DNA of 64,000 bases, taken from positions 202,678 through 266,677 of the forward strand of contig JAIPGN010000001.1 in the NCBI GenBank assembly GCA_021735685.1. The letters are read 5' to 3'. This DNA is from Patescibacteria group bacterium. GTDB taxonomy: Bacteria; Patescibacteriota; Patescibacteriia; UBA2591; UBA6264. The notes below the pieces were generated by a model that was given only the letters and a program-made list of their open reading frames with translations, had not been told where the DNA came from and ran no database searches. Position numbers and translations under genes: made by a program. Positions 2,157 to 62,185 of the stretch are shown in pieces. Every line of letters starts with the position of its first letter. The first letter of the stretch is position 1.

Positions 2157-2235
2157 TTACAGAACCAAACGGATTAATAATTTAATACAAAATTCCAATT
2201 TTCAATTACCTTCAGTGCCCAATTAACCATCCTCT

Positions 2236-2886
2236 ATGTTTTTATCAAAATCAATTGCACAAAATACTATTGGCAGCATCCTAAAAGAAGCTCGCCAGAA
2301 GAATAAATGGACCTTAAAGCAAGCTGAAAGAAAAACTGGCATTGCTCAAAAATATTTAGAATGTTTAGAGGCCGATGATTTTTATAAATTACCGGGGACT
2401 ACTTATACCCGCGGTTTTTTAGAAAGATATGCTGAATTTTTAAAACTTAAGCCAGAGGTTATTATTGAAAGGTGGCGAAAAGAATTTAGCCAAGCTACTA
2501 AACCGAAAGTTCCTGAAAAAATGGGGATTAAAAATAAGCCTCATACTTTTGCTGAAATTAGTGTTTATTTTGTTATTTTTGCGGTTTTGTTATTCCTGGT
2601 TTATCTTGGTCTTACTATTAGAGACACTCTTTTTACCTCTAATTTAGAAGTTTCTAGTCCGGCTGAAAATATCATTACTCAAGATTCTCATTTAACTATT
2701 GAAGGAAGCGCTGACCCAGGAGCTGATATTTTTATCAATGGCCAACTTTTAGAAAATGTTAGCGCGGACGGTACTTTTCAGCAAGAAATTAATTTATTTC
2801 CTGGCCTTAACGTTATTGAAGTGGCAGCCCAAAAGAAACATTCACAAAAAAAAATAGTGTCGCGTCAAGTGATTTTAGAAAAATAA
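2236..2886 (+). CDS. RodZ-like membrane protein with an N-terminal XRE-type HTH
   Basis: The N-terminus has an HTH (TLKQAERKTGIAQKYLECLE) followed by a single TM segment and an extracytoplasmic C-terminal domain, which is RodZ-like architecture. It sits between ftsK and recA. Confidence 0.5.
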   Translation: MFLSKSIAQNTIGSILKEARQKNKWTLKQAERKTGIAQKYLECLEADDFYKLPGTTYTRGFLERYAEFLKLKPEVIIERWRKEFSQATKPKVPEKMGIKNKPHTFAEISVYFVIFAVLLFLVYLGLTIRDTLFTSNLEVSSPAENIITQDSHLTIEGSADPGADIFINGQLLENVSADGTFQQEINLFPGLNVIEVAAQKKHSQKKIVSRQVILEK

Positions 2887-2901
2887 TATAATATAAAAAA
2901 T

Positions 2902-3954
2902 ATGGCTTCAAAAAAAACCAGCAAAAAAGTAGACAGTAAGCCAGAGGTTAAAAAAGAGCTTACTGATCGTCAAAAAGCCACGGAAGTGGCGATTAATCAA
3001 ATTAAAGAAAGGTTTGGCGAAGGTTCTATTATGATGCTTCGCGAGGCCAAAAAAATGGAAGTAGAGGCTATCTCTACTGGTTGTTTATCCTTGGATTTAG
3101 CTTTAGGGATTGGCGGTTTACCCCGCGGCAGAGTTATTGAGATTTTCGGTAAAGAAATGAGCGGAAAAAGCACTTTAGCTCTCCATGTTATTGCTGAGGC
3201 TCAGAAAAAAGGCGGAGTAGCCGCTTTTGTTGATGCTGAGCATGCTTTGGACCCAGAATATGCTAAAAGAATCGGGGTAAAAGTCAATGATTTATTGATT
3301 TCCCAGCCGGATACGGGAGAGCAAGCCTTAGAAATAGTAGAAACTCTAGTGCGTTCTAATGGAATAGATGTAATTGTAATAGATTCTGTAGCGGCCTTAA
3401 CTCCGAAAAAAGAAATTGAGGGCGAAATGGGAGATTCGCACATGGGCTTACAGGCTCGTTTAATGAGTCAGGCCTTGCGCAAGCTAACCGCCATTGTGAG
3501 CAAGAGTAAGGCTTCGGTGATCTTCATTAATCAAGTAAGAATGAAGATTGGTGTATTTTTTGGTAATCCGGAAACCACTACTGGAGGATTAGCCCTTAAA
3601 TTCTACTCTTCAGTAAGGGTGGAGTTAAAACGTTTGGCTCAAATTAAAAAGAAAGATGATGTAATTGGTAATAAGGTTAAGGCTAAGATTGCTAAAAATA
3701 AGGTAGCTCCTCCTTTCAAGACTTGTGAGTTTGAAATTATGTATAATCAAGGAATTTCTTGGGAAGGGGACTTATTGAACTTAGGAGCTAAATATGATTT
3801 AGTTAAAAAATCTGGTAATACCCTTAGTTATGAAGAAACTAAACTTGGCGTAGGTTGGGAAAATTCTAAGCAAGCCTTGCGTGATAATCCCAAATTAGCT
3901 AAAGAACTGAAAAAGAAAATCCTAAAAGCGATCAAAGAAGAACAAAAATCCTAA
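2902..3954 (+). CDS. recA: Recombinase RecA
   Basis: P-loop GKEMSGKST is present and the RecA core ([13 protein letters not shown]...IVIDSVAAL...) shows full-length colinearity. Confidence 0.95.
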
Positions 3955-3960
3955 AAAAAT

Positions 3961-4037
3961 ATGTACGAGGTTCGACCTCGTACATTTGCCCCTAAAACGT
4001 CTCAACCATGCTATGTACGAGGTTCGACCTCGTACAT
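3961..4037 (-). repeat. Paired-palindrome repeat element, family P1 (two 25-bp perfect palindromes ATGTACGAGGT-CGA-ACCTCGTACAT separated by a 27-bp spacer), inverted copy
   Basis: Palindromes occupy 3961-3985 and 4013-4037. The loop reads TTCGA, the reverse complement of the TCGAA loop in the copies at 47115 and 47808. The spacer is the reverse complement of the spacer in those copies. Confidence 0.75.
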
Positions 4038-4060
4038 GGATAGTAGATAAAATAAAAAAA

Positions 4061-4093
4061 TTGCGGAGAAATTATTCTTCGCAATTTTTCTTT
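4061..4093. terminator. Stem-loop plus T-run between convergent recA and the wzz-like gene (candidate intrinsic terminator)
   Basis: TTGCGGAGAA-atta-TTCTTCGCAA hairpin (one mismatch) followed by TTTTTCTTT. It lies in a convergent intergenic region. Confidence 0.45.
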
Positions 4094-4112
4094 ATTCTAT
4101 TGTTTTTTGATA

Positions 4113-5126
4113 CTAATAATTAGTTTTTTTAACTTTCAGTTTTTCGATCGGGTCTTCCTTAAAATATTCTGCCCCAAAAGCATAAAGAATTCCTAAAAAT
4201 ATTCCCAGAATGCCAGCAATGATAACATTTTGCTTTCGGTTTGGAGAAATTCTGGTTTCAGGAGCTGTGGCTGGAACTTCAACTTCTGTGGGTTTGGTTT
4301 GATAAACCCTCTCGTATTTTTTAGATTGAATTTGTTGTTCTAGGTTAACTAGTTTATGTTCCAAATTCAGTAGTTGAGATTCTTTGCTTTCTTTTTGGTT
4401 TTTGACTGTGGCTAAAAGATCAATATAGCTTTCGGCAATGCGGCCTTGGCCATCGCTGTAAGCGGCCGAACGGTTATTAATTTCTCTTTGATAATTTTCA
4501 ATATCGCTTTCTAGGCGAGTAATTTCTTCGTTAGTTTTAGTAATATTTTTTTCTGTTTTTTCTTTTTCGCTTACAATGGTAGCTAACTCGGTTTCGTAAT
4601 TTTTTTCTGCTTCACTAAAGATATTGTTGTGATAGGTAAGGAGAATGTCTGAGACTGCTTGCACCACGGTTACTGCTTGTTCTGGAGTATGAGCCCTTCC
4701 TTGAATTTCAATAAATTTAGAAAACTTGTCTTGGTTTTCGCCATTTTCATTTTCTTTGATGTCAAACATTTGAGCTACTTGATTAGTGGTGGCTCCTTCT
4801 GATAATGCTAAAGGTTCCTTAATTTTGTTTTTAACTTGTTGGAGAACGGTTTCTCGAGAAAAAACAGAGTTGATAGTATTAAGGCTTTGAATGGGATCTC
4901 CTTTAATTTTTCCGACTTCAATTAAGTTGCTAGCCTGAAAAACAGGAGTTATTAGAAGACTGATGATAATACTAAAGATTACAATCCCTCCAAAAATACT
5001 GGCAATTTGCCATTTTCTCTTGCAAAGGACTTTAATATAATCTCGTAAGTCAATTTCATCTTCTTCTGAATAATGATGTTCTTCTAAGATTTTTTCTTCT
5101 TGGCTTTGATATTCGTTGTTTTCCAT
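4113..5126 (-). CDS. Polysaccharide co-polymerase / chain-length determinant (Wzz-like)
   Basis: N-terminal Wzz-type motif (IDLRDYIKVLCKRKWQI followed by a TM), a long coiled-coil periplasmic region and a C-terminal TM (IIAGILGIFLGILYAFGAEYF). Confidence 0.55.
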   Translation of the reverse strand: MENNEYQSQEEKILEEHHYSEEDEIDLRDYIKVLCKRKWQIASIFGGIVIFSIIISLLITPVFQASNLIEVGKIKGDPIQSLNTINSVFSRETVLQQVKNKIKEPLALSEGATTNQVAQMFDIKENENGENQDKFSKFIEIQGRAHTPEQAVTVVQAVSDILLTYHNNIFSEAEKNYETELATIVSEKEKTEKNITKTNEEITRLESDIENYQREINNRSAAYSDGQGRIAESYIDLLATVKNQKESKESQLLNLEHKLVNLEQQIQSKKYERVYQTKPTEVEVPATAPETRISPNRKQNVIIAGILGIFLGILYAFGAEYFKEDPIEKLKVKKTNY

Positions 5127-33902: not shown

Positions 33903-35192
33903 ATGAGCAAAATAGCCAAAATAAAAGCACGGGAAGTTTTAGATTCCCGCGGTAACCCCACCGTGGAGGCAACTGTTTTTTTGGAAAATAGTATTCAAGG
34001 AAAAGGTATGGTTCCTTCGGGGGCTTCAACCGGTAAACACGAAGCTGTGGAATTAAGAGATCAAAATCAAAGTCGTTATTCGGGAAAGGGAGTATTGAAT
34101 GCTTGTCAAAATGTAGAAAAAATTATTGCTCCAGTTTTAGTTGGTCAAGATGTAGATTTGATTAAAATGGATCAGAAGATGTTATCTTTGGATAGCACTA
34201 AAGATAAATCTAAGCTGGGCGCTAATGCTATTTTGGCGGTTTCTTTAGCCTTGGCTCGTGCTGAAGCTAAAGAAAAAAAATTACCCCTTTATCAATACTT
34301 AAGAGAAATATATCAATTGCCTTTAGTTGAATATCAATTACCAACTCCTTTATTTAATATTATTAACGGAGGTATTCATTCTGATTCTGGTTTAAGCGTG
34401 CAAGAGTTTATGGTGATTCCTCTTTCTCCAAAAACTTTTCGGGAAAAAATGAGAATAGGAGCAGAGGTTTTTGGAGCCTTGAAAGAGATTTTAAGAAAAA
34501 AGGGTTTGACTTTTGCTGTTGGAGATGAAGGAGGTTTTGCCCCAAAATTAAAAAACACAGAAGCAGCTTTTGATTTATTGGTAGCGGTTTCCGAATTCAC
34601 TAAACATACTTTAGGAGAAGAGATATTTTTTGGAGTTGATGTGGCCGCTTCTGTCTTTTTTCAAGAGAAATCGAAAAAACCTTATTTATTTGAAAATAAA
34701 AAGAGAAGCAGTGCGGAAATGGCTAAAATTTATTGGAAGTGGGTCAAGAAATATCCTTTGCTTTTTATTGAAGATCCTTTTGCTGAAGACGACTGGGATC
34801 CTTGGACTTCCTTAACTGCTAAGATTAATAGCTTGGAACAAGGTATTTTATTGGTTGGTGATGATTTATTTACTACCAATATTGAAAGATTGAGAAAAGG
34901 GATTGAAAAATCTTCGGTTAATTCTGTTTTAATTAAACCCAATCAAATTGGCACCTTAAGCGAGACCATAGATTGCATTAATTTAGCTCGGAAGCATAAT
35001 TACAAAGTGGTCATCTCTCATCGTTCCGGAGAAACCAATGATTCTTTTATCGCTGATTTAGCCGTAGCAGTTAATGCTGACTTTATCAAAGCTGGTGCTC
35101 CGAATAGAGGAGAAAGAATAGCTAAGTATAATCGATTAATGGAGATAGAAGGCGAATTATCTAATTTGTCGCAAGCACCAAAAAGAAAATAA
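33903..35192 (+). CDS. eno: Enolase
   Basis: N-terminal IAKIKAREVLDSRGNPTVEA and C-terminal SHRSGETND are enolase signatures. Confidence 0.95.
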   Translation: MSKIAKIKAREVLDSRGNPTVEATVFLENSIQGKGMVPSGASTGKHEAVELRDQNQSRYSGKGVLNACQNVEKIIAPVLVGQDVDLIKMDQKMLSLDSTKDKSKLGANAILAVSLALARAEAKEKKLPLYQYLREIYQLPLVEYQLPTPLFNIINGGIHSDSGLSVQEFMVIPLSPKTFREKMRIGAEVFGALKEILRKKGLTFAVGDEGGFAPKLKNTEAAFDLLVAVSEFTKHTLGEEIFFGVDVAASVFFQEKSKKPYLFENKKRSSAEMAKIYWKWVKKYPLLFIEDPFAEDDWDPWTSLTAKINSLEQGILLVGDDLFTTNIERLRKGIEKSSVNSVLIKPNQIGTLSETIDCINLARKHNYKVVISHRSGETNDSFIADLAVAVNADFIKAGAPNRGERIAKYNRLMEIEGELSNLSQAPKRK

Positions 35193-35231: not shown

Positions 35232-36803
35232 ATGAAAAAACAAGATCAACGAGCTATGTTGATTATCTTAGATGGTTGGGGCGTGGGTCTAAAAAGTAAA
35301 GGAAACGCGATTGAGATGGCCCAAAAGCCCTTTTTTGATAGCTTAAGAGCCAAGTATTCTTATACAGAAATTTGTGCTCATGGTTTAAAGGTTGGTCTTC
35401 CTCAAGGGCAACCAGGCAATTCAGAAGCTGGTCATTTGAACTTGGGTGCGGGAAGAGTTATCGAAAGTGATGCTGTGCATATTGATAGTTTGATTAAGGA
35501 CGGAAGATTTTTCAAAAACCCTGCTTTTTTAGAAGGAATTAGCCATTATCAAAAAAATAAATCGCAAGTGCATTTAATGGGTTTAGTTACTGAAGAAAAC
35601 AGCGCTCATTCTTCGCCAGGTCATTGGTTGGCGATGCTTAATTTTTTAAAAGAAAAAAAGGTGCCAAAGGTTTTTTTGCATCTTTTTACTGATGGTCGTG
35701 ATTCTTCGCAACACGCGGCTATTAGGATTTTAGAAAGATTTGAGGCTAAAATTAATGGCAATGGCTCTCCTTTGAAAGTGGAAATTGTTAGCATTGTGGG
35801 GCGTTTTTATGCCATGGATCGAGTTCAAGAATGGAGTAACATTGAGAAAGCGTATCAGCTTCTTACGGAAGGAGAGGGCTTCCAAGCCAGTAGTGCGGCT
35901 GAAGCGATTGTTAGCGCTTATAACCGGAAAGAAACCGATGAGTTTGTTAGTCCGACGGCAATTGTTGATAAAAAAGGAAAACCTCAGGGTTTGATTAAAG
36001 ACAAGGATTTGGTTTTCTTTATGAATTTACGTTCTGATCGAGCCAGAGAGTTAAGTAAAGTTTTTGTTCAGAAAGATTTTGAAAAGAAAAATTCCAAGGC
36101 TTTTTCACGAAAAAAGTTTTTAGAAAATTTGTTTTTTGTAGCTTTAACTGATTTTGGGCCAGATTTAGGTCGAATTCGAACTGCTTTCCCGAGCCCAAAA
36201 GTTGAAGAAACTTTGCCTTTTTGTCTGTCTTCTCGCCAGCAATTATATGTAGCCGAAAGTGAAAAATATGCCCATATTACTTTTTTCTTTAACGGAGGAT
36301 ATGATCATGTGGTTGCTGGAGAAAAAAGAATAATTGTTCCTTCGCCAGCAGTTGAGTCTTATGACCTTCAGCCAGAAATGAGCGCCGAGAAATTAAGTGC
36401 CAAAGTTATTCAAGAAATCAATGCCAATCAACCTGGTTTTGTGGCCCTTAATTTCGCTAATCCAGACATGGTTGGGCATACTGGTAATTTGATTGCCGCG
36501 ACCAAAGCTGTTGAATGCGTTGATCGCAATTTAAAGAAAGTAGTAGCTTGCGCTCAGAAAAATAAATACTCTGTAATTATTACTGCTGATCATGGAAATG
36601 CTGAAGAGATGATTGATTTAAGGACTGGGGAAATACGTACTACCCACACTATTAATCCCGTTCCTTTTATTTTATTTGGTCCAGATCTTAAGTCGGTTCA
36701 ATTAAAGAAAGACGGTTCTTTGTCTGATGTGGCGCCGACAATTTTAGAAATTTTAAATGAATCAAAGCCGCCAATAATGAAAGGGCGAAGCTTAATTAAG
36801 TAA
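35232..36803 (+). CDS. gpmI: 2,3-bisphosphoglycerate-independent phosphoglycerate mutase, copy 1
   Basis: LIILDGWG, GNSEAGHLNLGAGR (catalytic Ser) and the ITADHGN metal site. Confidence 0.9.
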   Translation: MKKQDQRAMLIILDGWGVGLKSKGNAIEMAQKPFFDSLRAKYSYTEICAHGLKVGLPQGQPGNSEAGHLNLGAGRVIESDAVHIDSLIKDGRFFKNPAFLEGISHYQKNKSQVHLMGLVTEENSAHSSPGHWLAMLNFLKEKKVPKVFLHLFTDGRDSSQHAAIRILERFEAKINGNGSPLKVEIVSIVGRFYAMDRVQEWSNIEKAYQLLTEGEGFQASSAAEAIVSAYNRKETDEFVSPTAIVDKKGKPQGLIKDKDLVFFMNLRSDRARELSKVFVQKDFEKKNSKAFSRKKFLENLFFVALTDFGPDLGRIRTAFPSPKVEETLPFCLSSRQQLYVAESEKYAHITFFFNGGYDHVVAGEKRIIVPSPAVESYDLQPEMSAEKLSAKVIQEINANQPGFVALNFANPDMVGHTGNLIAATKAVECVDRNLKKVVACAQKNKYSVIITADHGNAEEMIDLRTGEIRTTHTINPVPFILFGPDLKSVQLKKDGSLSDVAPTILEILNESKPPIMKGRSLIK

Positions 36804-36811
36804 TATTTTTT

Positions 36812-38383
36812 ATGTCTAATCAGATTCAGCCGGTACTTTTAATTATTCTTGATGGCTTTGGAGTTGCCTCTGTTGGGAACGGCAATGCGGTTACTTCTGC
36901 TAATTTGCCGTCTTTGGAGGGATTGGTTAATAATTATCCCACTACCACTCTTCAAGCTTCTGGCGAATCTGTTGGCCTATCTTGGGGCGAGCCAGGCAAT
37001 TCAGAGGTGGGTCATTTGAATATGGGAGGCGGTCGTATTATTTGGCAAAGTTTACCTCGTATCACTCAGGCCATTAGTGATAATAGTTTTTTTAAAAATA
37101 AAGCTTTCTTGAAAGCAGTCGAGCATGCTCAAAAAAATAATTCGGCTTTACATTTAGCTGGTTTAGTCTCTAGCGGGGGAGTGCATTCTTCTTTTGGTCA
37201 CTTGCACGCTCTTTTGGAATTAGCTGCTCAACAGGGTTTAGAAAAAGTTTATTTACATATTTTTCTAGATGGACGTGACTCTCCGCGAGATAGTGGCCAA
37301 GGTTTTGTAGAGGATCTAATTTCCAAGATGAGGAAATTAGGAGTTGGTCAAATTGCAACTTTGTCAGGACGTTTTTACGCTATGGATCGGGATAATAATT
37401 GGGACAGAATTGAAAGGGCTTATTTGGCTATGACTAAGGGTTTAGCGGAAGAAGAATTTGAAGATCCTTTAGTTGCGATTGAATCTTCTTATCAAAAAGG
37501 AATTTATGATGAGGAATTTGTGCCCGTAGTGATTAAAGAAAAAGATCAAGAGCCAATAGCAGTACAAGATAATGATGCTTTAATTTTCTTTAATTTTCGT
37601 CCAGATCGAGCTCGACAAATCACGGAAGCTTTTACCAAAAAAGAATTTGATGGTTTTCCGCGCGAGAAATTGAATAACTTTCTAATGGTTACTTTGACTG
37701 AATACGAGCAAGGATTGCCAGTAGAAATTGCTTTCCCAGTTGAAGACATTAAAAATCCTTTAGCCGAGACGATTAGTTCGGCTGGACATGGTCAATTTCA
37801 TATTGCCGAAACTGAAAAATATGCCCACGTTACTTTTTTCTTTAATGGCCGACGAGAAAAGAATTTCCCGCAAGAGGAAAGAATTCTAATCCCTTCTCCG
37901 CAGGTCAGTTCTTATGATCAAAAGCCAGAAATGTCTGCTCCTCAGGTTACTCATCAAGTTTTATGGGCCTTAGGAGATAAGAAATATAAGTTTATAGTAG
38001 TTAATTTTGCTAATCCAGATATGGTGGGTCATACGGGTAATTTAGGGGCAGTGATTAAATCTTTGGAAACTTTAGATGGTTTGGTGGGCAAAATTGTTGA
38101 TTTGGCCTTGAAGCAAAATTGGGTTAGTATCATTACTGCTGATCACGGCAATTGTGAAAAGATGATTAATTTAAGAAGCGGAGAGATTAATAAAGAGCAC
38201 ACTAATAATCCGGTTCCTTTTTTGGTCATTAAAAAAGGAGTAGAGGATCGGGGATTTTCTGGAGGTTTAAAAAATTTAAGCGCCTTAACTCCTAGTGGAG
38301 TTTTGGCTGATGTTGCTCCGACGATTTTAAAGATTATGAATTTGCCTCAGCCCCCAGAAATGCAAGGAATTTCTTTGGTTTAA
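36812..38383 (+). CDS. gpmI: 2,3-bisphosphoglycerate-independent phosphoglycerate mutase, copy 2 (divergent tandem paralog)
   Basis: LIILDGFG, GNSEVGHLNMGGGR and ITADHGN. Same 523-aa length as copy 1, with roughly 40-45% identity estimated by eye. Confidence 0.9.
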   Translation: MSNQIQPVLLIILDGFGVASVGNGNAVTSANLPSLEGLVNNYPTTTLQASGESVGLSWGEPGNSEVGHLNMGGGRIIWQSLPRITQAISDNSFFKNKAFLKAVEHAQKNNSALHLAGLVSSGGVHSSFGHLHALLELAAQQGLEKVYLHIFLDGRDSPRDSGQGFVEDLISKMRKLGVGQIATLSGRFYAMDRDNNWDRIERAYLAMTKGLAEEEFEDPLVAIESSYQKGIYDEEFVPVVIKEKDQEPIAVQDNDALIFFNFRPDRARQITEAFTKKEFDGFPREKLNNFLMVTLTEYEQGLPVEIAFPVEDIKNPLAETISSAGHGQFHIAETEKYAHVTFFFNGRREKNFPQEERILIPSPQVSSYDQKPEMSAPQVTHQVLWALGDKKYKFIVVNFANPDMVGHTGNLGAVIKSLETLDGLVGKIVDLALKQNWVSIITADHGNCEKMINLRSGEINKEHTNNPVPFLVIKKGVEDRGFSGGLKNLSALTPSGVLADVAPTILKIMNLPQPPEMQGISLV

Positions 38384-41487: not shown

Positions 41488-41701
41488 GTCCGCCAAACTC
41501 GCTTCCTTGGCGGAAAGTAAGGGCAAAAAATTAAAATGGCGAAAAAACAGCTTATTTGAAAATTGAATTTTTAAATCCTCTGACACCCTCAGTGTGTAGT
41601 TCTAATTTTTATCGGTTAAAAAATTTAAAAAAGGGCTTTTTTCTGCCAAATTGAAAAAATGGGCTGGAAAGCTTTTTGGAGAGCTGCTTCTGAGAGGAGA
41701 A

Positions 41702-41772
41702 AAGAAGGGGACTGTCCCCAGTTGTTTTATTTTTTTAAGAAGGGGACTGTCCCCAGTTGTTTTATTTTTTTT
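41702..41772 (+). repeat. Tandem duplication (2 x ~36 bp) of a hairpin-plus-T-run unit, AAGAAGGGGACTGTCCCCAGTTGTTTTATTTTTT, upstream of secD
   Basis: GGGGAC-t-GTCCCC stem followed by a T-rich run, repeated twice head to tail. It lies in the 365-nt secA-secD spacer. Confidence 0.6.
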
Positions 41773-41827
41773 ATTTGTTAGAATATTAAAATTATTAGCA
41801 GTTTTAATTCTTATTTTTTTTATTGAT

Positions 41828-43468
41828 ATGAATCGTAATAAAGTTTGGACTAGTTTTATCTTGATTATTGTTTTAGCTTTTTTGGCTTTAATGGTTGATA
41901 TTCCCCAGCTTCCTGAATGGGTGCCGGGTCATCAATGGTTTTCTCGTCAAAAGGTCCATTTAGGTCTTGATTTGCAAGGAGGCACGCAATTAGTTTATCA
42001 AACCGATACTAGCAATATTCCTAAAGAAGAAAAATTGTCTGCAGTTGAAGGGGCTAGAAATGTTGTTGAAAGAAGGATTAATATCTTTGGAGTTACAGAG
42101 CCAATTATTCAAATAGCTAAGGTGGAGAATGAGTGGAACTTGATTGTGGAATTGCCGGGGATTGAAGATGTGTCCGCGGCAGTAGAAATGATTGGGGAAA
42201 CTCCAATCTTGGAATTTAAAGAAAAGGCTCCTCCTCATGAGTTAACTGAAGAGGAAAAACAAGCTTTAGCTGAATATAATCGTCAGGCTCGAGTTAGGGC
42301 GGAAGATATTTTAAGCGAGACTTTAGCAGGAGAAGATAGTTTTGCTGATTTGGCTCAAAAATATTCCGAAGATGCGGGTACTAATTTAGATGGAGGCGAT
42401 TTAGGGTGGTTCCCGCGAGGAATGATGATTCCTGCTTTTGAAGAAGCTGTTTTTGATTCTTCCTTGAATTCAGGAGAAATAATTCCAGAAATCATTGAAA
42501 CTAGCATTGGTTATCATATTATTAGAAAAACAGATGAAAAAGTGACGGAAGATGGAGAGGTTGAAGAGGTGAAGGCTAGTCATATTTTAATCATGACCCA
42601 ATCTGAGGAAATGATTAGTCAGGACGGTCAGTGGCAGTATACTGGGCTTACCGGCAAACAGCTTAAAAGAGCTATGGTGACTTTTGCTCCCCAAACTGGA
42701 GAGCCGGAAGTTTCTCTAGAGTTTAACTCCGAAGGCGCTAAACTTTTTGGAGAAATTACGGGGAGGAACATAGGTCAACCAGTGGCCATCTTTCTAGATA
42801 ATTATCCTTTGAGCATTCCAGTAGTACGAGAAAAAATAAGCACGGGAGAAGCTGTTATTAGCGGAGGTTTTGCCCTTAATGAAGCTAAGGAATTGGCTCG
42901 TCGTTTGTCGGCTGGTGCCTTGCCCGTCCCTATTAAACTGGTGGGGCAGCAAAATATTGGTCCTAGTTTAGGTAAAATTTCAGTACAAAAAAGTATAGTG
43001 GCCGGCATCCTGGGTTTCTTCTTGATTTGTATTTTTATGCTTGGCTTTTATAAATGGCGAGGCGTTTTAGCGGTATCAGCCTTGATTATTTATGCTTTAA
43101 TTGTTTTAGCTATTTATAAATTAATCCCAGTTACTTTAACTTTAGCTGGAGTAGCTGGTTTCATTATTTCTTTAGGTATGGCTGTTGATGCTAATATTCT
43201 TATTTTTGAAAGAATTAAAGACGAAAACCGGTTGGGAAAAAATTTAGCAGTAGCTATTGATGATGGTTTTAGTCATGCTTGGACTGCGATTCGGGATGGC
43301 AATATTACAACTTTAATTGTTTGTTTTATTTTGTATCATTTTGGTTCGGGTTTAGTGAGAGGATTTGGTTTAACTTTGGGAATCGGAGTTCTTTTGAGTA
43401 TGTTCACTGCTATTGTGGCCACTAAAACCTTCCTAAAAATTACTACTAAAGATTTTTTAAAGGATTAA
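41828..43468 (+). CDS. secD: Protein translocase subunit SecD carrying an inserted parvulin-type (PpiC) peptidyl-prolyl isomerase domain
   Basis: SecD motifs are present in order (LGLDLQGGTQL, RINIFGVTEPIIQ, LPGIEDVSAAVEMIGETPILEFKE, then after the insert ALNEAKELARRLSAGALPVP, then 6 TM segments). The insert (~aa 132-260) carries QARVRAEDIL ... DSFADLAQKYSEDAGTNLDGGDLGWFPRGMMIPAFEEAVF ... SIGYHIIRK, a complete parvulin signature. Start chosen at ATG 41828. Confidence 0.85.
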   Translation: MNRNKVWTSFILIIVLAFLALMVDIPQLPEWVPGHQWFSRQKVHLGLDLQGGTQLVYQTDTSNIPKEEKLSAVEGARNVVERRINIFGVTEPIIQIAKVENEWNLIVELPGIEDVSAAVEMIGETPILEFKEKAPPHELTEEEKQALAEYNRQARVRAEDILSETLAGEDSFADLAQKYSEDAGTNLDGGDLGWFPRGMMIPAFEEAVFDSSLNSGEIIPEIIETSIGYHIIRKTDEKVTEDGEVEEVKASHILIMTQSEEMISQDGQWQYTGLTGKQLKRAMVTFAPQTGEPEVSLEFNSEGAKLFGEITGRNIGQPVAIFLDNYPLSIPVVREKISTGEAVISGGFALNEAKELARRLSAGALPVPIKLVGQQNIGPSLGKISVQKSIVAGILGFFLICIFMLGFYKWRGVLAVSALIIYALIVLAIYKLIPVTLTLAGVAGFIISLGMAVDANILIFERIKDENRLGKNLAVAIDDGFSHAWTAIRDGNITTLIVCFILYHFGSGLVRGFGLTLGIGVLLSMFTAIVATKTFLKITTKDFLKD

Positions 43469-50871: not shown

Positions 50872-50878
50872 GAAAGAA

Positions 50879-50950
50879 TAGCAGGAGCGGGGATCGAACC
50901 CGCGACATGTGCCTTATGAAGACACCGCTCTGCCACTGAGCTATCCTGCC
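50879..50950 (-). tRNA. tRNA with CAU anticodon (elongator Met or Ile2/lysidine type)
   Basis: Reverse complement GGCAGGA-TA-GCTC-AGTGGCA-GAGC-G-GTGTC-TTCATAA-GGCAC-ATGTC-GCGGG-TTCGATC-CCCGC-TCCTGCT-A forms a cloverleaf with a G1-U72 wobble, a CAT anticodon and no encoded CCA. Confidence 0.8.
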
Positions 50951-50951
50951 A

Positions 50952-51026
50952 TGGTTGCGGGGACAGGATTCGAACCTGTATCCTCCAGGTTATGGGCCTG
51001 GCGAGCTGCCATTGCTCTACCCCGCG
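50952..51026 (-). tRNA. tRNA-fMet-like (CAU anticodon, C1:A72 mismatch, encoded CCA)
   Basis: Reverse complement CGCGGGG-TA-GAGC-AATGGCA-GCTC-G-CCAGG-CCCATAA-CCTGG-AGGAT-ACAGG-TTCGAAT-CCTGT-CCCCGCA-A-CCA. The unpaired C1/A72 is an initiator hallmark. One nucleotide separates it from the next tRNA. Confidence 0.8.
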
Positions 51027-57232: not shown

Positions 57233-57515
57233 TTTTTTTGGATTGACAAAAGGTCAATTTTGTGATATCTTGATGATATAAGAATGAATAAATTATTAGT
57301 TTAATTTAAAAAAATGGAATTTAAAAAATTAAGTCATCAGGAGAAAGAAGAAGAGCAAGAAGCTTTAATTGCTCGAGAAGAAGAGGAGGAGGAAGAAAAT
57401 GAAGAAGCTTTAATTGCTGAAGAAGAGGCCGAAGAAAAAGAGGAGAGAAAAAGAAAAAAAGCTTTATTTTATAAAAAGATTAAAAAAGACAAAGAACAAG
57501 ATTAGCTTTAACTAT

Positions 57516-60500
57516 ATGGAAATGTCTAAAAAAAATAACAAACCTGAGGAAAAAAAGGCAACAGGTGAAACTAAAGAAGGAAGTAGCTATGAAGCTCAGA
57601 TAAAAAAAGCAGAAAATATTGATGCTTTAATGGCAACTTTAGATGATATTCCTAATTTTTTTGAGGAAGAAAATGAGGATAAAGCTAAAGAAGAATTTAA
57701 GGAAAAATTTGAAATTCTTAAAAAAGAAGTTGAGGCTCGTAAAGAAGATGAAGACGTCGTTGAATATGGCGGCTTTAATTTTTTTACTACAGAATATGGA
57801 TTAAGAAGCAAGATAAGAGAGCTGTTATTGGGAGAAAGCTTTAAAGATGAAATAGAAAATAAAGACGCAGAAGAACAAGAAACAGAAAAGGAGAAAGCAA
57901 ATAATGAAAAAGAAGAAGAGAGAAAAAAAAGGGAAAAAGAGGCTCTAGAAAAGAAAGCTGAGGAAAAAGAAATGCTTTATTCTACTAAAATTGATTTAAT
58001 GGAAGATCTTGATGATAATGAAAAGAAAGAATTAAAAGATAAGGTAAGATTTGTTAATAAAGAAAAAGTAGCTGAAGAGTGTCAAGGAGATTTTGAGGAA
58101 TTGTTAAAATTGTCTGCCCAAGAGGAAGGGGAGATAGTTAAAAAGAAAAAAGAAGACAAAGATGAGAAAGTTGAAGAAGGTAAAGAGGAAGAGGAGAGTG
58201 AAGAGCAAATAGAAATTGATCTTGAAGGATTACCAACAGAAGGGGAAGGTAAGTATCAGGAAAAAATAAAAGAAATGAGCGAGAAATTAGATTTACCTGA
58301 GGAAGAAATTGAGCAAATTGTTAACCAACAAAAAGCTAATTTAGTTGAATTAACAGCTCAGAAATCTAAAAAGAAAGAAAAGAAATGGAAGAAAATAGGC
58401 AAAACTTTGGGAATTTATGCGGTTCTTGGCGGCGGCTTAGGTTTATTAACTGGTGGCTTAGGCATTGGTATTGGTCTTGCGGCCGGAAGAATCATTGATA
58501 CTATTTTTAAAGGAAAGAAAACTAAAAAGGATCAAGAAAAGGCCCAACAAGAAGTTAATGCCATTTTATTAAAAACCAAAGAGGCTGAAGGAGAAGCCGA
58601 TAAAGAAGAAGACGAAGGCACGAAAAGTGTTTTGGATTCTTTTTATGATAATATTTTTACTGAATTGTCTTTGGCTAAGCGCAATCAAATCGAGGGCCAG
58701 AATAAAGAAAAGAGTGAGCTTGGAAAAAAAATTTCTAAACTAGAAGAAAGTTATCGCCCAGAAGATAAAGAAAAATTAGCAGAACTTTATCAAACGAGAA
58801 GGGAACAGCAAAAAGAAAAAATCCAAGATTATTTAATGGCAAAGGGCTTAGAAGGAGAAGAATTAGAAAAAAGAGTGAAATTGTCAGCTCAGTTAGTAGA
58901 ATTAGATGATAATCAAAAAATAATGGAACTTGATTTTGCTAAACGCAAGGCCAGTAAAGTCGCTAAGATCTTTAGCAAACTAGATTCAATTTTAAGTCAT
59001 CCTGCTCTTTTGGGTGGAGCCAAGCAGGCAGAGAGCCAAAATAAAGAAAAGATAATTACTGCTAGTATTTTTGCAGTAGCTGGTGTTTTGGCTCGTTCTT
59101 GCCCAATAGTTAGGAATGTTTTAATGGCTTATGCGGGTATGAAATTAGGCTCTGCTGCCGCTGATTTAATGTTTGGAAAAAACAAAGAACTAAGAGAGGT
59201 TTCTGGCGAACAGCTTAGCCTAGAAAGCAGCGTTGAGGACCTTAATCGAGCTAAGGCCCAACTTTTAGACCCTAAATATAAAGAAAAAAATCCTTTAGAA
59301 CATGCTAAATTACAAGAAAAAATATTTGCTATTGATCGTGCCAGAATGGAGAAAGCCTTAGGAAAGACAGAGGCAACAGAGAGGGAAGATGAGGAGGCTG
59401 AAGGTGAAAAAATTGAAACTGATTCAGAGGAAGAGAAGATAGAGGTAAAAGAAGAAGAGGAAATAAAAGAAGCTGTAGAGGAAAAATATGGTTACATTGT
59501 TCAGGCCAACCAAGAATTAGAAGAAGCAATTAAAAAAAGAAGAGCAGCTCAGGGAGCACATAAAGGAATGAAAATATTTTTAGGAATAGCTGGCGGAGTA
59601 GCAGGTTGGTTTTTGGGAGAATATATGAATAAGCAAAATGAGGCTAAGGAAGCAGAGAAGGCCCAAGCAAAGAAATTAGAAGAAACGCAAAAAGATTTTC
59701 CTAAAGAAAATGTTAATAATGAAACTCCTCTTGACAAGCAAATAAAAATGTCAGCTGCCGAATTAGAAGCGCAAGAAAAGGAGCTGGCTCGAATTGAAGC
59801 AGAAAGAAGAATGGCTGAACTTAATAAGCCCGTTGTAGTAGAAAAGGGAGATACGGTTTGGGGAGTGTGCGAAAAGCAATTAGAAGAAAGAGTAGATAAT
59901 TGGGAAGAATTAAGCCAGGCGGAAAAAGATTATTTGATTGATTGGTATAAAGATAAAGTAGTGGCTAATCCCGCAGAGTATGGAATTGATGGTGGTAATG
60001 CCAGTTCTTTAAAAATTGGCTCGGAAATTAAAGTTGCTAATTTATTTAAAGATCAGGGTGAAATGGTTAAAGCTTTAGCTAAAGCACAGGGCTTAAGTAC
60101 GGAACAAGTCCAAAATATTATGAATAATCGAGAATTGATTGGTAATGTTATGAGTCAAAAATTAGAAGAAGTTCCCGGAGATAAATTATTAGAAGCAGTG
60201 CGAGTGATGGGCGGAACTGATCAAGCGGGGGCTGGCTTTGTGGCTGAAGTTGAAAAAAGAGCCACTGAGGTTTTAGGGGAAGCTGTTACTTCTGATCAAA
60301 CTCAAACTATATTAAATAATCCTGAGGTTTTTGGGAAAATAATGGATTCTGGGGTTGAGAGTCTTGAAGAAGTGGAAAATGAAACTTTGGGTCAAGCCTT
60401 TAGGCTGCTTAAGAATACTGATAGCGTGGGCAAAGAATTACTTCAAGAGGCTCAAGAAGTAGAAGGAGCGATAGGAGAAGAGTTAGTAGAAAGAGCTAGT

Positions 60501-61001
60501 GGTAGTTGGGAAAGGATTAAGAATATTATCGGTGGAGACCCCTATGACAATCAATTTCATGCTGGTTATGACATTGACCCTAATAAGCCCTTGATGAGCG
60601 TTTATCAGAATGATTGGATATCTCAAAAAGCTGACGAGGCTTTAAGTAAAGGAGATGAATTAATTAGTCAAGCTGAAAAAATGCAGGAATTGATTGGCAA
60701 GAGTGACTCTTGGTGGCATAAACTTTGGGGTATTGAGGGTAAAATTGAAAAATTAAAAGACACCTTTGATCAAAATACTGACATCTTTAATCAGGTGAAA
60801 GAAACTTACTATAATGGTTGGCAGCAAGGAAAATCTTCGGCTCAAGAATGGTTTAATCTAACCGGAGATAAAAAGATTCTTGGTGATTATTTTGGAGGAG
60901 ATTTTTTCGAAAAAAATAACTCTCTTTTGAGCGAAAAAATATCAAAATTACAAGAATTAATTAACCAACTAGGCAGTCGATATAGCAATGGAGCAGTATA
61001 A
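57516..61001 (+). CDS. Large (~1160 aa) E/K-rich coiled-coil membrane protein with glycine-zipper TM segments and a C-terminal LysM-like domain, hypothetical
   Basis: Start chosen at ATG 57516 (MEMSKK). Low-complexity charged N-terminal ~300 aa; TM GIYAVLGGGLGLLTGGLGIGIGLAAG; two further hydrophobic segments; VVVEKGDTVWGVCEKQ...IGSEIKV is LysM-like; the C-terminal ~350 aa is globular. Confidence 0.55.
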   Translation: MEMSKKNNKPEEKKATGETKEGSSYEAQIKKAENIDALMATLDDIPNFFEEENEDKAKEEFKEKFEILKKEVEARKEDEDVVEYGGFNFFTTEYGLRSKIRELLLGESFKDEIENKDAEEQETEKEKANNEKEEERKKREKEALEKKAEEKEMLYSTKIDLMEDLDDNEKKELKDKVRFVNKEKVAEECQGDFEELLKLSAQEEGEIVKKKKEDKDEKVEEGKEEEESEEQIEIDLEGLPTEGEGKYQEKIKEMSEKLDLPEEEIEQIVNQQKANLVELTAQKSKKKEKKWKKIGKTLGIYAVLGGGLGLLTGGLGIGIGLAAGRIIDTIFKGKKTKKDQEKAQQEVNAILLKTKEAEGEADKEEDEGTKSVLDSFYDNIFTELSLAKRNQIEGQNKEKSELGKKISKLEESYRPEDKEKLAELYQTRREQQKEKIQDYLMAKGLEGEELEKRVKLSAQLVELDDNQKIMELDFAKRKASKVAKIFSKLDSILSHPALLGGAKQAESQNKEKIITASIFAVAGVLARSCPIVRNVLMAYAGMKLGSAAADLMFGKNKELREVSGEQLSLESSVEDLNRAKAQLLDPKYKEKNPLEHAKLQEKIFAIDRARMEKALGKTEATEREDEEAEGEKIETDSEEEKIEVKEEEEIKEAVEEKYGYIVQANQELEEAIKKRRAAQGAHKGMKIFLGIAGGVAGWFLGEYMNKQNEAKEAEKAQAKKLEETQKDFPKENVNNETPLDKQIKMSAAELEAQEKELARIEAERRMAELNKPVVVEKGDTVWGVCEKQLEERVDNWEELSQAEKDYLIDWYKDKVVANPAEYGIDGGNASSLKIGSEIKVANLFKDQGEMVKALAKAQGLSTEQVQNIMNNRELIGNVMSQKLEEVPGDKLLEAVRVMGGTDQAGAGFVAEVEKRATEVLGEAVTSDQTQTILNNPEVFGKIMDSGVESLEEVENETLGQAFRLLKNTDSVGKELLQEAQEVEGAIGEELVERASGSWERIKNIIGGDPYDNQFHAGYDIDPNKPLMSVYQNDWISQKADEALSKGDELISQAEKMQELIGKSDSWWHKLWGIEGKIEKLKDTFDQNTDIFNQVKETYYNGWQQGKSSAQEWFNLTGDKKILGDYFGGDFFEKNNSLLSEKISKLQELINQLGSRYSNGAV

Positions 61002-61042: not shown

Positions 61043-61363
61043 ATGAATGAAGAAAAAAATCCAACAGAAGCTTTTGCTGATAGCTTGATTCAGCAAGCCA
61101 ATATTACTCTCCCAGAAGAAGAATTGGAAGTTTATCGCAATAAATTAATGCAGCAGATTGAAAAAAGATTAGGTTTAATATCCTTAGATGCCTTAGATGA
61201 TAAAGGTTTAGAGGATTATGAAAAATTATTAGGAGAAAATCCAGACCCGAATGATCCTCAAGTGCGAGATTTTTTTAGCTCTCGAATTGAAAATTACGAA
61301 GAAAAAATTAAAGAAGCTTTAGATAATTTTAAGGCCGAATTTCTTTCTGCTTTAAATAAATAA
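61043..61363 (+). CDS. Hypothetical acidic helical protein (106 aa)
   Basis: ORF with reasonable context downstream of the large protein. No motif recognised. Confidence 0.4.
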   Translation: MNEEKNPTEAFADSLIQQANITLPEEELEVYRNKLMQQIEKRLGLISLDALDDKGLEDYEKLLGENPDPNDPQVRDFFSSRIENYEEKIKEALDNFKAEFLSALNK

Positions 61364-61386
61364 AATCTTAAAGCTATTTCTGAAAA

Positions 61387-61413
61387 AAGTTTGGAGGCTG
61401 AACCTCCAAACTT
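61387..61413. repeat. P2 palindrome AAGTTTGGAGG-ctgaa-CCTCCAAACTT (copy 1, loop in inverted orientation)
   Basis: Perfect 11-bp arms. The CTGAA loop is the reverse complement of the TTCAG loop in copies 2 and 3. It lies 60 nt upstream of the transposase-like ATG. Confidence 0.7.
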
Positions 61414-61474
61414 TTTCGTTCCTTTTTTTAAAATTATTTCAAAATATGTTTATAATGATTATAATAAAAAACAT

Positions 61475-62185
61475 ATGAGCAAAAGAAAGGTTCAATTTAT
61501 TAATGATGAGTATTATCACGTCTATAATCGAGGAGTTGATAAGAGAATAGTTTTTGAGTCTTCAGAAGATTTAGAAAGATTCTTTTTAAGTATGCAAGAG
61601 TTTAACGATATAAATCCTATTGGCAGCATTTATGAGGAAAAATTAATCAAAAATAGAATAGAAAAGTTTGGAGGTTCAGCCTCCAAACTTTCAGCCTCTG
61701 ATTTTTCCCCGAAAGAAAAGGAGAAATTAGTAGAATTCATTTGTTATAATTTATTGCCAAATCATTATCATTTTTTTCTGAAGCAATTAGTAGATAATGG
61801 GATTCAGAAATTTATGCATAGAATATCAACGGGCTATACGGGATTTTTTAACAGGAAAAATAAGCGCAACGGTTCTTTGTTTCAAGGCAGATATAAAGCA
61901 ATTCATGTTAATTCTAATGAGTATTTGTTGCACTTAAGCACATATATTAATCTTAATCACCAGGTACATAATTTAGAAAAGTTTGGAGGTTCAGCCTCCA
62001 AACTTTTTAAATCTAGTTGGAGAGAATATTTAGGGCAGGATCAAAAAGAAATTTGCGCTAAGGATATTATTTTAGATCAATTTGACTCTAGTAATAATTA
62101 TCAAAAATTTAGCGAAGAAGGTTTAGAAAGAATTAAGGAGAGCAAAGAAATTCAAAAATATTTATTAGAGGAATTAAATAATTAA
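61475..62185 (+). CDS. IS200/RAYT-like HuH (Y1) transposase-family protein with two in-frame palindrome-encoded inserts
   Basis: YHVYNRGVDKRIVF (beta1), LLPNHYHFFL (HuH-type HxH motif) and SLFQGRYKAIHVNSNEYLLHLSTYINLNH (Y-containing helix) are colinear with the Y1 transposase/TnpA_REP fold. The sequence EKFGGSASKL occurs twice and is encoded by P2 palindromes. Start chosen at ATG 61475. Confidence 0.55.
   Translation: MSKRKVQFINDEYYHVYNRGVDKRIVFESSEDLERFFLSMQEFNDINPIGSIYEEKLIKNRIEKFGGSASKLSASDFSPKEKEKLVEFICYNLLPNHYHFFLKQLVDNGIQKFMHRISTGYTGFFNRKNKRNGSLFQGRYKAIHVNSNEYLLHLSTYINLNHQVHNLEKFGGSASKLFKSSWREYLGQDQKEICAKDIILDQFDSSNNYQKFSEEGLERIKESKEIQKYLLEELNN
61664..61690. repeat. P2 palindrome AAGTTTGGAGG-ttcag-CCTCCAAACTT (copy 2, inside the transposase-like CDS)
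   Basis: Perfect arms. Translated in-frame as KFGGSASKL. Confidence 0.7.
61979..62005. repeat. P2 palindrome AAGTTTGGAGG-ttcag-CCTCCAAACTT (copy 3, inside the transposase-like CDS)
   Basis: Identical to copy 2 and 315 bp downstream of it. It is translated in the same frame as copy 2. Confidence 0.7.

Follow-up and report, generated by a model that had tools for sequence, protein, structure and literature searches.

A candidate envelope-spanning scaffold protein of Patescibacteria with a LysM-like domain and a conserved DUF5663 partner gene

The hub proteins FimV, HubP and TspA of Proteobacteria are of large size and combine a LysM domain, which anchors them to the wall on one side of the membrane, with a single transmembrane helix and, in the cytoplasm, a long low-complexity stretch that is highly acidic and recruits further proteins. 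In the FimV/HubP type, the LysM domain is N-terminal and periplasmic, and a FimV-type motif is found at the C-terminus. Here we describe a protein of related layout that is encoded in a 64,000-nucleotide stretch of DNA (the window) from a Patescibacteria group bacterium (assembly GCA_021735685.1, contig JAIPGN010000001.1). The gene occupies 57516..61001 on the forward strand (ATG at 57516, stop codon at 60999–61001) and encodes 1161 residues, in agreement with the roughly 1160 residues given in a first-pass annotation made from the letters alone, and its start is conserved in relatives. We tentatively read the product, with slightly less than an even chance of being right, as a Patescibacteria-specific, envelope-spanning structural scaffold that would tie the cell wall to a cytoplasmic helical platform. 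The likeness to FimV and HubP appears to be one of functional analogy and not of homology. Unlike those hubs, the protein carries its LysM-type domain C-terminally (the orientation is reversed), adds two hydrophobic hairpins and a helical core that is conserved, and has a DUF5663 protein as its partner; its gene showed no link to genes for pili or flagella, and no NCBIfam or Pfam FimV-type match places the query in that family.

Alignment with relatives separates a helical core with three hydrophobic elements (module A, residues ~140–737) from a LysM-like module (module B, residues 772–882). In the segments listed below from the N- to the C-terminus, A1 is the family alignment of the query and A6 a further profile; AlphaFold2 confidence is given as the predicted local distance difference test (pLDDT) score.

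57516..57932, forward strand: residues 1–139, variable glutamate/lysine-rich N-terminal region, probably cytoplasmic
57933..58403, forward strand: residues 140–296, helical domain 1 of module A, conserved in A1 and A6, with the motifs KEMLYSTKIDLMED...VKFVNKEK and GLPxEEIxxI
58404..58487, forward strand: residues 297–324 (H1), glycine-zipper hydrophobic segment TLGIYAVLGGGLGLLTGGLGIGIGLAAG with GxxxG runs and a central conserved TGG
58488..59051, forward strand: residues 325–512, helical domain 2 of module A, conserved in A1 and A6, pLDDT 86–97 over residues ~369–478
59052..59174, forward strand: residues 513–553 (H2), 41-residue hydrophobic helical hairpin, AlphaFold2 helices at 505–528 and 530–553
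59175..59567, forward strand: residues 554–684, helical region 3, with the motifs RAKAQLLDxKFKExNPxEHAKLQEKIF and GYIxxxNxxLEExIKKRR and a glutamate-rich insertion at ~615–655
59568..59624, forward strand: residues 685–703 (H3), by its charge asymmetry the predicted single true transmembrane helix, running from inside to outside
59625..59828, forward strand: residues 704–771, charged stalk or linker from the membrane to the LysM-like domain, helical in the AlphaFold2 models
59829..60041, forward strand: residues 772–842, divergent LysM-like domain, beta-alpha-alpha-beta in the AlphaFold2 model, with a ~20-residue insertion between the helices, first part of module B
60066..60242, forward strand: residues 851–909, helical repeat 1 (LSxEQxxNIxNNRExIGNVM...), its first half within module B, conserved across the superfamily
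60264..60440, forward strand: residues 917–975, helical repeat 2 (TxxQxQTILNNPEVFGKIM...), aligned to repeat 1 by hhalign
60441..61001, forward strand: residues 976–1161 and the stop codon, C-terminal helical tip, an apparently exchangeable cassette

The side of the membrane on which module B lies was read from its simplest carriers. P0124 (184 residues) has a classical lipoprotein signal, MKKLLLSFILLVVLTGC, with module B directly after it, and P0155, P0157 and P0101 consist of a short N-terminus rich in lysine and arginine (K/R), one H3-like helix and module B. Because of this lipoprotein signal and these single-helix builds, module B should be extracytoplasmic in all of them. We also counted K/R over 15 residues on each side of the last helix before module B in 105 proteins. 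The counts were 4.5 upstream and 2.0 downstream, and the upstream side was the richer one in 91 of the 105 (Wilcoxon p = 7e-14), an excess that corresponds to the positive-inside signature predicted for an inside-to-outside helix. H3 displayed the same asymmetry both in the query (5–6 upstream, 3 downstream) and in 59 relatives (mean 5.2 versus 2.3). The flanks of the other two elements were symmetrical: those of H1 held 9 and 6 K/R in the query and, on average, 5.3 and 5.0 in 64 relatives, and those of H2 held 3.35 and 3.35 among 59–65 module A proteins. In P0080, a module A relative, an FtsK-gamma DNA-binding domain is placed upstream of the hydrophobic segments. Taken together, the charge asymmetry, the lipoprotein form of module B and the FtsK-gamma relative indicate a topology in which the N-terminus would be inside, H1 and H2 would be non-crossing hairpins, H3 the sole true span and the C-terminus outside. 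Since both ends of H1 and of H2 lie inside by charge, residues 1–684, most of the protein, are predicted to be cytoplasmic. Neither a signal peptide nor an early hydrophobic segment was found in residues 1–139.

This topology bears on several claims of the first-pass annotation. Its suggestion of an envelope-spanning scaffold is supported, with the N-terminal side predicted to be cytoplasmic and the LysM-like domain and C-terminus extracytoplasmic, and the two hydrophobic segments that it placed beyond the glycine zipper do exist, one of them double (residues 513–553) and the other 19 residues long (685–703). Its three-pass protein with interleaved coiled coils outside was not borne out, as the charges put the ends of H1 and H2 inside. 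The glycine zipper itself is present at residues 297–324, but with its symmetric K/R flanks it is probably a hairpin or re-entrant element and not a simple transmembrane helix. Because H1 is short for a double span (28 residues here, 29–37 in relatives), it may dip into the inner leaflet only.

Evidence on the wall-facing part came from module B segments of 56 diverse relatives (profile A5), each of which was scanned against Pfam. For 32 of the 56, the best-scoring family was LysM (E ≤ 1, best E 2.6e-6), and the next family matched 10; among whole relatives, 4 of 52 matched Pfam LysM at E ≤ 0.01, and the whole query gave no Pfam match at E ≤ 1, LysM included. Against PDB sequences, the A5 profile matched SafA (E 0.0016) through the second half of the domain and LytE (E 0.035) through the first half. 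AlphaFold2 placed the elements in the LysM order, with a strand at 773–774, helices at 781–792 and 801–817 and a strand at 837–838. With described LysM domains (PF01476; MltD, AtlA, SafA, LytE) the segment shares this modelled beta-alpha-alpha-beta order, a GD[ST]hW start, a '...N-P/G...L-x-x-G-Q/x-x-I' end motif and the predicted extracytoplasmic placement. It differs from them in its size (~70 residues here versus ~44), with ~20 extra residues lengthening the helices and the loop between them, and in its constant fusion to a conserved 'LSxEQxxNIxxNN' helix pair, which gives a module of ~110 residues. By these comparisons, module B opens with a divergent, expanded LysM-type domain, a relationship that is clear at the family level only. 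Our literature search on LysM-type proteins in Patescibacteria and the Candidate Phyla Radiation found nothing relevant.

The top PDB matches of profiles A2 and A5 were transcription activator-like (TAL) effectors, with E-values down to 3e-13. Homology to these was rejected because no single stretch was significant: the scores are sums of 13–15 weak matches to the motif 'A-x-G-L-S/T-P-E-Q-x-x-x-I-x-x-N', with individual i-Evalues of 18–5000. A helix motif like the start of a TAL-effector repeat, 'G-L-S/T-x-E-Q-x-x-x-I-x-x-N', occurs at residues ~855–880, ~920–945, ~250–274 and ~648–674; we judged the likeness of so short a motif to be coincidence or convergence.

The family to which the protein belongs is large. 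A search with residues 290–1161 returned 17 homologues, all from Patescibacteria/Parcubacteria metagenomes, with identities from 75% down to 30% and without a Pfam domain in any of them. An exhaustive search of 1.84 billion representatives with the A1 profile yielded 438 proteins at E ≤ 1e-3, of which 264 reached E ≤ 1e-10, counted as clusters at 50% identity. On this profile evidence, the superfamily comprises at least 438 such clusters and appears to be confined to Patescibacteria: the only sources of named members are Parcubacteria, Kerfeldbacteria, Nomurabacteria, Komeilibacteria and the 'Patescibacteria group', and every such member is called 'hypothetical protein' except one, which is called FtsK owing to an accessory gamma domain. 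A search of the GTDB species representatives with A1 gave three loci. Two GTDB species representatives (loci L010 and L011) deposited as metagenome-assembled genomes of 'uncultured Gammaproteobacteria bacterium' carry clear family members together with DUF5663; since all other members are from Patescibacteria, a wrong taxonomic label or faulty binning is the probable cause.

The first reading named no characterised homologue, and none emerged here. Whole-protein scans with Pfam, NCBIfam, PHROGs and PADLOC gave nothing significant; sequence searches of PDB, made with the protein as well as with profiles A2, A6 and A7, brought up only noise from helical or low-complexity chains, among them apolipoprotein, CFAP46 and YukC; and Foldseek searches of PDB and BFVD were likewise without a significant match. 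The family is present in databases as hypothetical proteins only, and module A and the full module B have no family definition.

When matches among the 161 proteins retrieved were mapped onto the A1 profile, the two modules were found to occur independently, module A alone in 41 relatives, module B alone in 87 and both in 26. Even proteins scored as module B only retain the general layout of the family, with a long charged N-terminal region lacking a signal peptide, a glycine-rich hydrophobic segment of 28–40 residues, a second hydrophobic segment of ~17–20 residues, a linker (median 86 residues) and module B. Relatives with module A only bear other, unrelated C-terminal regions of 300–1300 residues. 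P0080 (2141 residues), already mentioned, has its FtsK-gamma domain at residues 726–773 of its N-terminal region (Pfam E 7.6e-9) and is called 'DNA translocase FtsK' at NCBI, yet it lacks the translocase motor.

Conservation in A1 starts at about residue 140 and is strongest in six places: the motif KEMLYSTKIDLMED...VKFVNKEK; the glycine-rich segment; the block KEKLITAGIFAVAGxLARSCPIVRNILMAYAGMKLGSAAA; the motif RAKAQLLDxKFKExNPxEHAKLQEKIF; the third hydrophobic segment; and VEKGDTVWG...KDKVVANP...GIDGGNASSLKIGDE. Only residues 1–139 and two glutamate-rich insertions (~205–243 and ~615–655) are variable. Residues 1–139 have 15–24% identity to all relatives beyond the closest clade, and the first insertion interrupts helical domain 1, which outside it was modelled with a pLDDT of 81–96. 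The N-terminal ~300 residues had been described as glutamate/lysine-rich low-complexity sequence; the composition of residues 1–305 (24% glutamate, 18% lysine) agrees with the first half of this description, but residues 140–297, the insertion apart, are conserved and confidently modelled and are not low-complexity. The length of H2 is always 41 residues in relatives, and its near-invariant residues are G523, A526, R527, P530 and G541.

AlphaFold2 was run with the family alignments on two parts of the protein. Residues 139–770 were modelled with a pLDDT of 79.6 and a predicted template modelling (pTM) score of 0.71 and residues 762–1161 with a pLDDT of 82.7 and a pTM of 0.69, and both models were almost wholly helical. 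The folding of the last 400 residues agrees with the globular C-terminus of about 350 residues that had been proposed. Given the high pTM, packed helical bundles fit the long modelled helices better than coiled coils would. H3 lies within one 67-residue helix (659–725), which is followed by a helix at 738–769. Foldseek found nothing in PDB at E ≤ 0.001 for either model (module A gave one match, E 6.7) and nothing in BFVD at E ≤ 0.001 for the C-terminal model.

H1 was left unmodelled (pLDDT ~30), as would be expected if its packing needs an oligomer. This is one of the observations behind a different explanation, in which the glycine-zipper hairpins H1 and H2 drive homo-oligomerisation of a Mic10-type or channel-like kind, so that the protein would either curve the membrane, at division sites for instance, or act as a conduit, with the LysM-like domain only positioning the assembly. 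Like Mic10-type hairpins and the Pfam Gly-zipper families, H1 has GxxxGxxxG runs, a central turn motif (the conserved TGG) and basic flanks on both sides, and the strictly fixed length of H2 with its near-invariant G, A, R and P exceeds what a passive anchor needs. However, H1 differs from those segments in being only 28–37 residues long; despite its GxxxGxxxG motif, no Pfam match at E ≤ 1 to Gly-zipper_Omp, Gly-zipper_YMGG or Rick_17kDa_Anti was obtained, nor was there one to a channel family; NCBIfam matches in this segment were insignificant (E 0.04–0.07); and many module B proteins retain one long glycine-rich segment and one transmembrane helix only. We consider a membrane-shaping or pore-forming oligomer an improbable but live alternative.

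The C-terminal part showed both an internal repeat and signs of exchange. The internal repeats seen at first reading were recovered by hhalign, residues 851–909 aligning to 917–975 with a probability of 97.2% (E 4e-11). The closest relative, P0002, is 81% identical to the query in module A and 77% identical in module B and the repeats, and its tip is unrelated to that of the query (BLASTP E 9.5). The query tip (residues 976–1161; 60441–60998), modelled as long helices with a pLDDT of mostly 79–92, instead matches those of the more distant P0004 and P0005 (E ~1e-31). By this pattern of matches, the last 186 residues behave as a cassette that is swapped between close relatives.

Swapping of this kind is typical under diversifying surface pressure, and it raises the question of whether the protein serves host contact or attachment, as the first-pass annotation had suggested. 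The outer C-terminus, and the tip especially, would then bind the surface of a host cell, and the LysM-like domain would bind host glycans or peptidoglycan and not the cell's own wall; such a role is compatible with a scaffold. The extracytoplasmic placement of the C-terminus, the unrelated C-terminal regions of module-A-only relatives and the restriction of the family to Patescibacteria all agree with such a role. However, the best-conserved parts are the cytoplasmic and membrane core and the cytoplasmic partner, not the exposed part, a conservation pattern that points to the cell interior as the main site of function. In addition, the outer part amounts to only ~460 residues, all of it helical and free of adhesin-type domains, the loci examined showed no conserved proximity to pilus or secretion genes, and phage pressure could equally explain the variable tips. 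Host contact is unlikely in our estimate, although the swapped tip gives the idea some support.

The partner gene encodes the 106-residue acidic protein that the first-pass annotation had singled out as a neighbour to be looked for in related genomes. It was found to belong to DUF5663 and to adjoin the large gene in every locus for which flanking sequence was available, namely the window, L001–L009 and L011–L014. The DUF5663 homologues beside the relatives were confirmed by a local profile and by hhalign (99.4%), and this constant linkage of PF18908 to the large-protein family is an observation of the present analysis. The elements of the operon in the window, and the small gene that accompanies the pair in other lineages, are as follows.

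57243..57271, forward strand: promoter-like site (TTGACA, 17-nucleotide spacer, TG-TATCTT), serving the two-gene operon
57314..57505, forward strand: 63-residue glutamate-rich open reading frame inside a lineage-specific, GA-rich 5'-leader insertion
61043..61363, forward strand: DUF5663 (PF18908) gene, 106-residue acidic protein, Pfam E 3.6e-6, 27.9 bits against a cut-off of 23.7
61384..61416, forward strand: terminator-like hairpin, a 14-bp stem and then a T run, closing the two-gene operon
L006 7677–7868, L008 5832–5999, L009 5779–5976, L013 3817–4008 and L014 3832–3999: small helical protein (EKIKRIREIYxxFxxELxKL)

In the clade of the window, the large gene comes first and DUF5663 follows 41 nucleotides downstream, the pair being bracketed by the promoter-like site and the strong terminator-like hairpin. 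Five more distant lineages have DUF5663 first, then a helical protein of 55–65 residues that is conserved, and the large gene last, an arrangement that includes module-A-only and module-B-only relatives. The small protein belongs to no Pfam family and is missing from the clade of the window; the idea that it has been fused to the large protein was rejected, as was that of a relationship between DUF5663 and some part of the large protein. The DUF5663 protein of the window has no hydrophobic segment, no relative of DUF5663 was detectable in PDB, and the family is not mentioned in the literature searched.

The genes flanking the pair in the window are housekeeping genes (MgsA, cytidine deaminase, TatD and a UvrD-like helicase), and synteny is kept at 44% protein identity. 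Across loci, housekeeping repair and nucleotide genes flank the pair in the window and in L001–L004, and glycosyltransferases, Lgt, ribosomal protein or ATP synthase genes do so elsewhere; the adjacency of DUF5663 holds even where all other neighbours differ. These surroundings bear on a further explanation, that of a prophage tape-measure-like protein or other mobile-element cargo. Tape-measure proteins are long and helical, with glycine-rich hydrophobic segments and often a wall-binding domain, and the query resembles them in gross composition; a Y1 transposase-like gene and repeated palindromes also lie just downstream. The gene pair, however, occurs in very different chromosomal contexts and always without phage genes. 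PHROGs gave a best E of 0.0053 to a single family of unknown function, with no individual stretch standing out, PADLOC gave nothing, and the BFVD result was equally empty. Given PHROGs, BFVD and the housekeeping neighbours, we rejected a phage tape-measure origin and regard this explanation as effectively refuted.

The palindrome in question, GTTTGGAGGCTGAACCTCCAAAC, is 23 nucleotides long and occurs in three copies (61389–61411, forward; 61666–61688, reverse; 61981–62003, reverse), with 0 expected by chance. The first copy is the terminator-like hairpin after the DUF5663 gene, and the second and third lie inside the Y1 transposase-like open reading frame 61391..62185, where they code for a repeated 'EKFGGSASKL' peptide. 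The copies look like repetitive extragenic palindromic (REP)-type hairpins with a REP-associated tyrosine transposase (RAYT)-like gene, but within its coding sequence.

For the scaffold that we favour, the following arrangement can be proposed. Residues 1–684 would lie in the cytoplasm as a variable glutamate/lysine-rich arm (residues 1–139) and a conserved all-helical core, the latter pinned to the membrane by the hairpins H1 (297–324) and H2 (513–553). H3 (685–703) would cross outward, and the charged helical stalk would then bear the LysM-like domain (772–842), the two ~60-residue repeats and the exchangeable tip. The LysM-like domain may bind the cell's own peptidoglycan and fix the protein in place; that peptidoglycan is made here is suggested by the MurJ lipid II flippase encoded in the same window (E 1.3e-93). 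With its glycine zippers probably driving oligomerisation, the cytoplasmic core would form a platform with the acidic DUF5663 partner, and the variable arm could recruit other components in the manner of a hub, one relative having FtsK-gamma at this place.

Several points weigh against this scaffold. The LysM-like motif noted at first stands at the family level (32 of 56 segments, best E 2.6e-6), but the isolated segment of the query scored below threshold (E 0.018; 15.4 bits against the PF01476 gathering score of 20.9), its match spans LysM positions 2–16 only, and Foldseek with the whole 400-residue C-terminal model gave no LysM structure. The assignment of hairpins is drawn from charge statistics and from parity with H3; H1 has few residues for a hairpin that spans the membrane twice and is unmodelled by AlphaFold2, and H2 may be the buried core of a helical bundle instead of being embedded in the membrane. 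Binding of DUF5663 is suggested only by the adjacency of the genes, the loci examined revealed no conserved association with genes for pili, division or secretion that would show what the platform organises, and no characterised homologue from the sequence and structure searches backs any function.

At the 5' side of the large gene, the reading frame is also open from an in-frame TTG at 57414. We took the ATG at 57516 as the start because this codon and the sequence just upstream of it are kept in L001, the closest orthologous locus. The TTGACA box lies ~270 nucleotides 5' of the ATG, and the box, like the sequence around it, is kept both in L001 and in L003, which is more distant. Between box and ATG, this genome has a GA-rich leader insertion of ~155 nucleotides that is absent from L001 and L003, contains a 45-nucleotide tandem duplication and creates the 63-residue open reading frame at 57314..57505. 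Since it owes its existence to this lineage-specific insertion, that frame is probably not a gene. It was also rejected as a counterpart of the small cassette protein conserved in other lineages, given the absence of the insertion from L001 and L003 and the lack of any similarity to that protein.

The coding DNA of the large gene is strongly purine-rich (GC skew 0.37, AT skew 0.29), as first described, but the "purine-rich repeats" of that description are scarcely there: the sequence is barely repetitive, with only short, low-scoring tandem repeats. The two glutamate-rich insertions (residues ~205–243, ~58128–58244; residues ~615–655, ~59358–59480) are found in the three closest sequences only, and a 15-nucleotide tandem repeat at 59426–59472 coincides with the second. 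The occurrence of these two insertions and the leader insertion suggests that GA-rich expansion is ongoing in this lineage.

Elsewhere in the window, a SecD/SecF-type export subunit (41651–43468) carries a PPIC-type peptidyl-prolyl isomerase (rotamase) domain at its residues 204–296, between the SecD P1 subdomains, an unusual fusion. Two tandem full-length paralogues of cofactor-independent phosphoglycerate mutase (35232–36803 and 36812–38383) stand beside an enolase gene (33903–35192), and two tRNA-Met (CAT) genes are directly adjacent at 50878–51026 on the reverse strand.

A large part of bacterial diversity belongs to Patescibacteria, and next to nothing is known of their cell biology. It is possible, if rather doubtful, that the gene pair and the three-gene cassette represent an unrecognised Patescibacteria-wide envelope system, a new cortical scaffold built on two folds without known relatives. 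If true, this system would link wall and cytoplasm and present an outer tip that can be exchanged, and it could fill landmark, division or host-interface roles in reduced genomes that lack the usual proteins. With its large size, its conservation within one lineage, its constant small partner and its exchangeable outer tip, the protein is a concrete candidate for a part in envelope organisation, in the positioning of machinery or in encounters with hosts and phages in these tiny cells. The analysis also provides three usable family definitions, namely module A, the LysM-like module B that Pfam missed at threshold here, and the DUF5663 linkage, which could serve to annotate hundreds of 'hypothetical proteins'.

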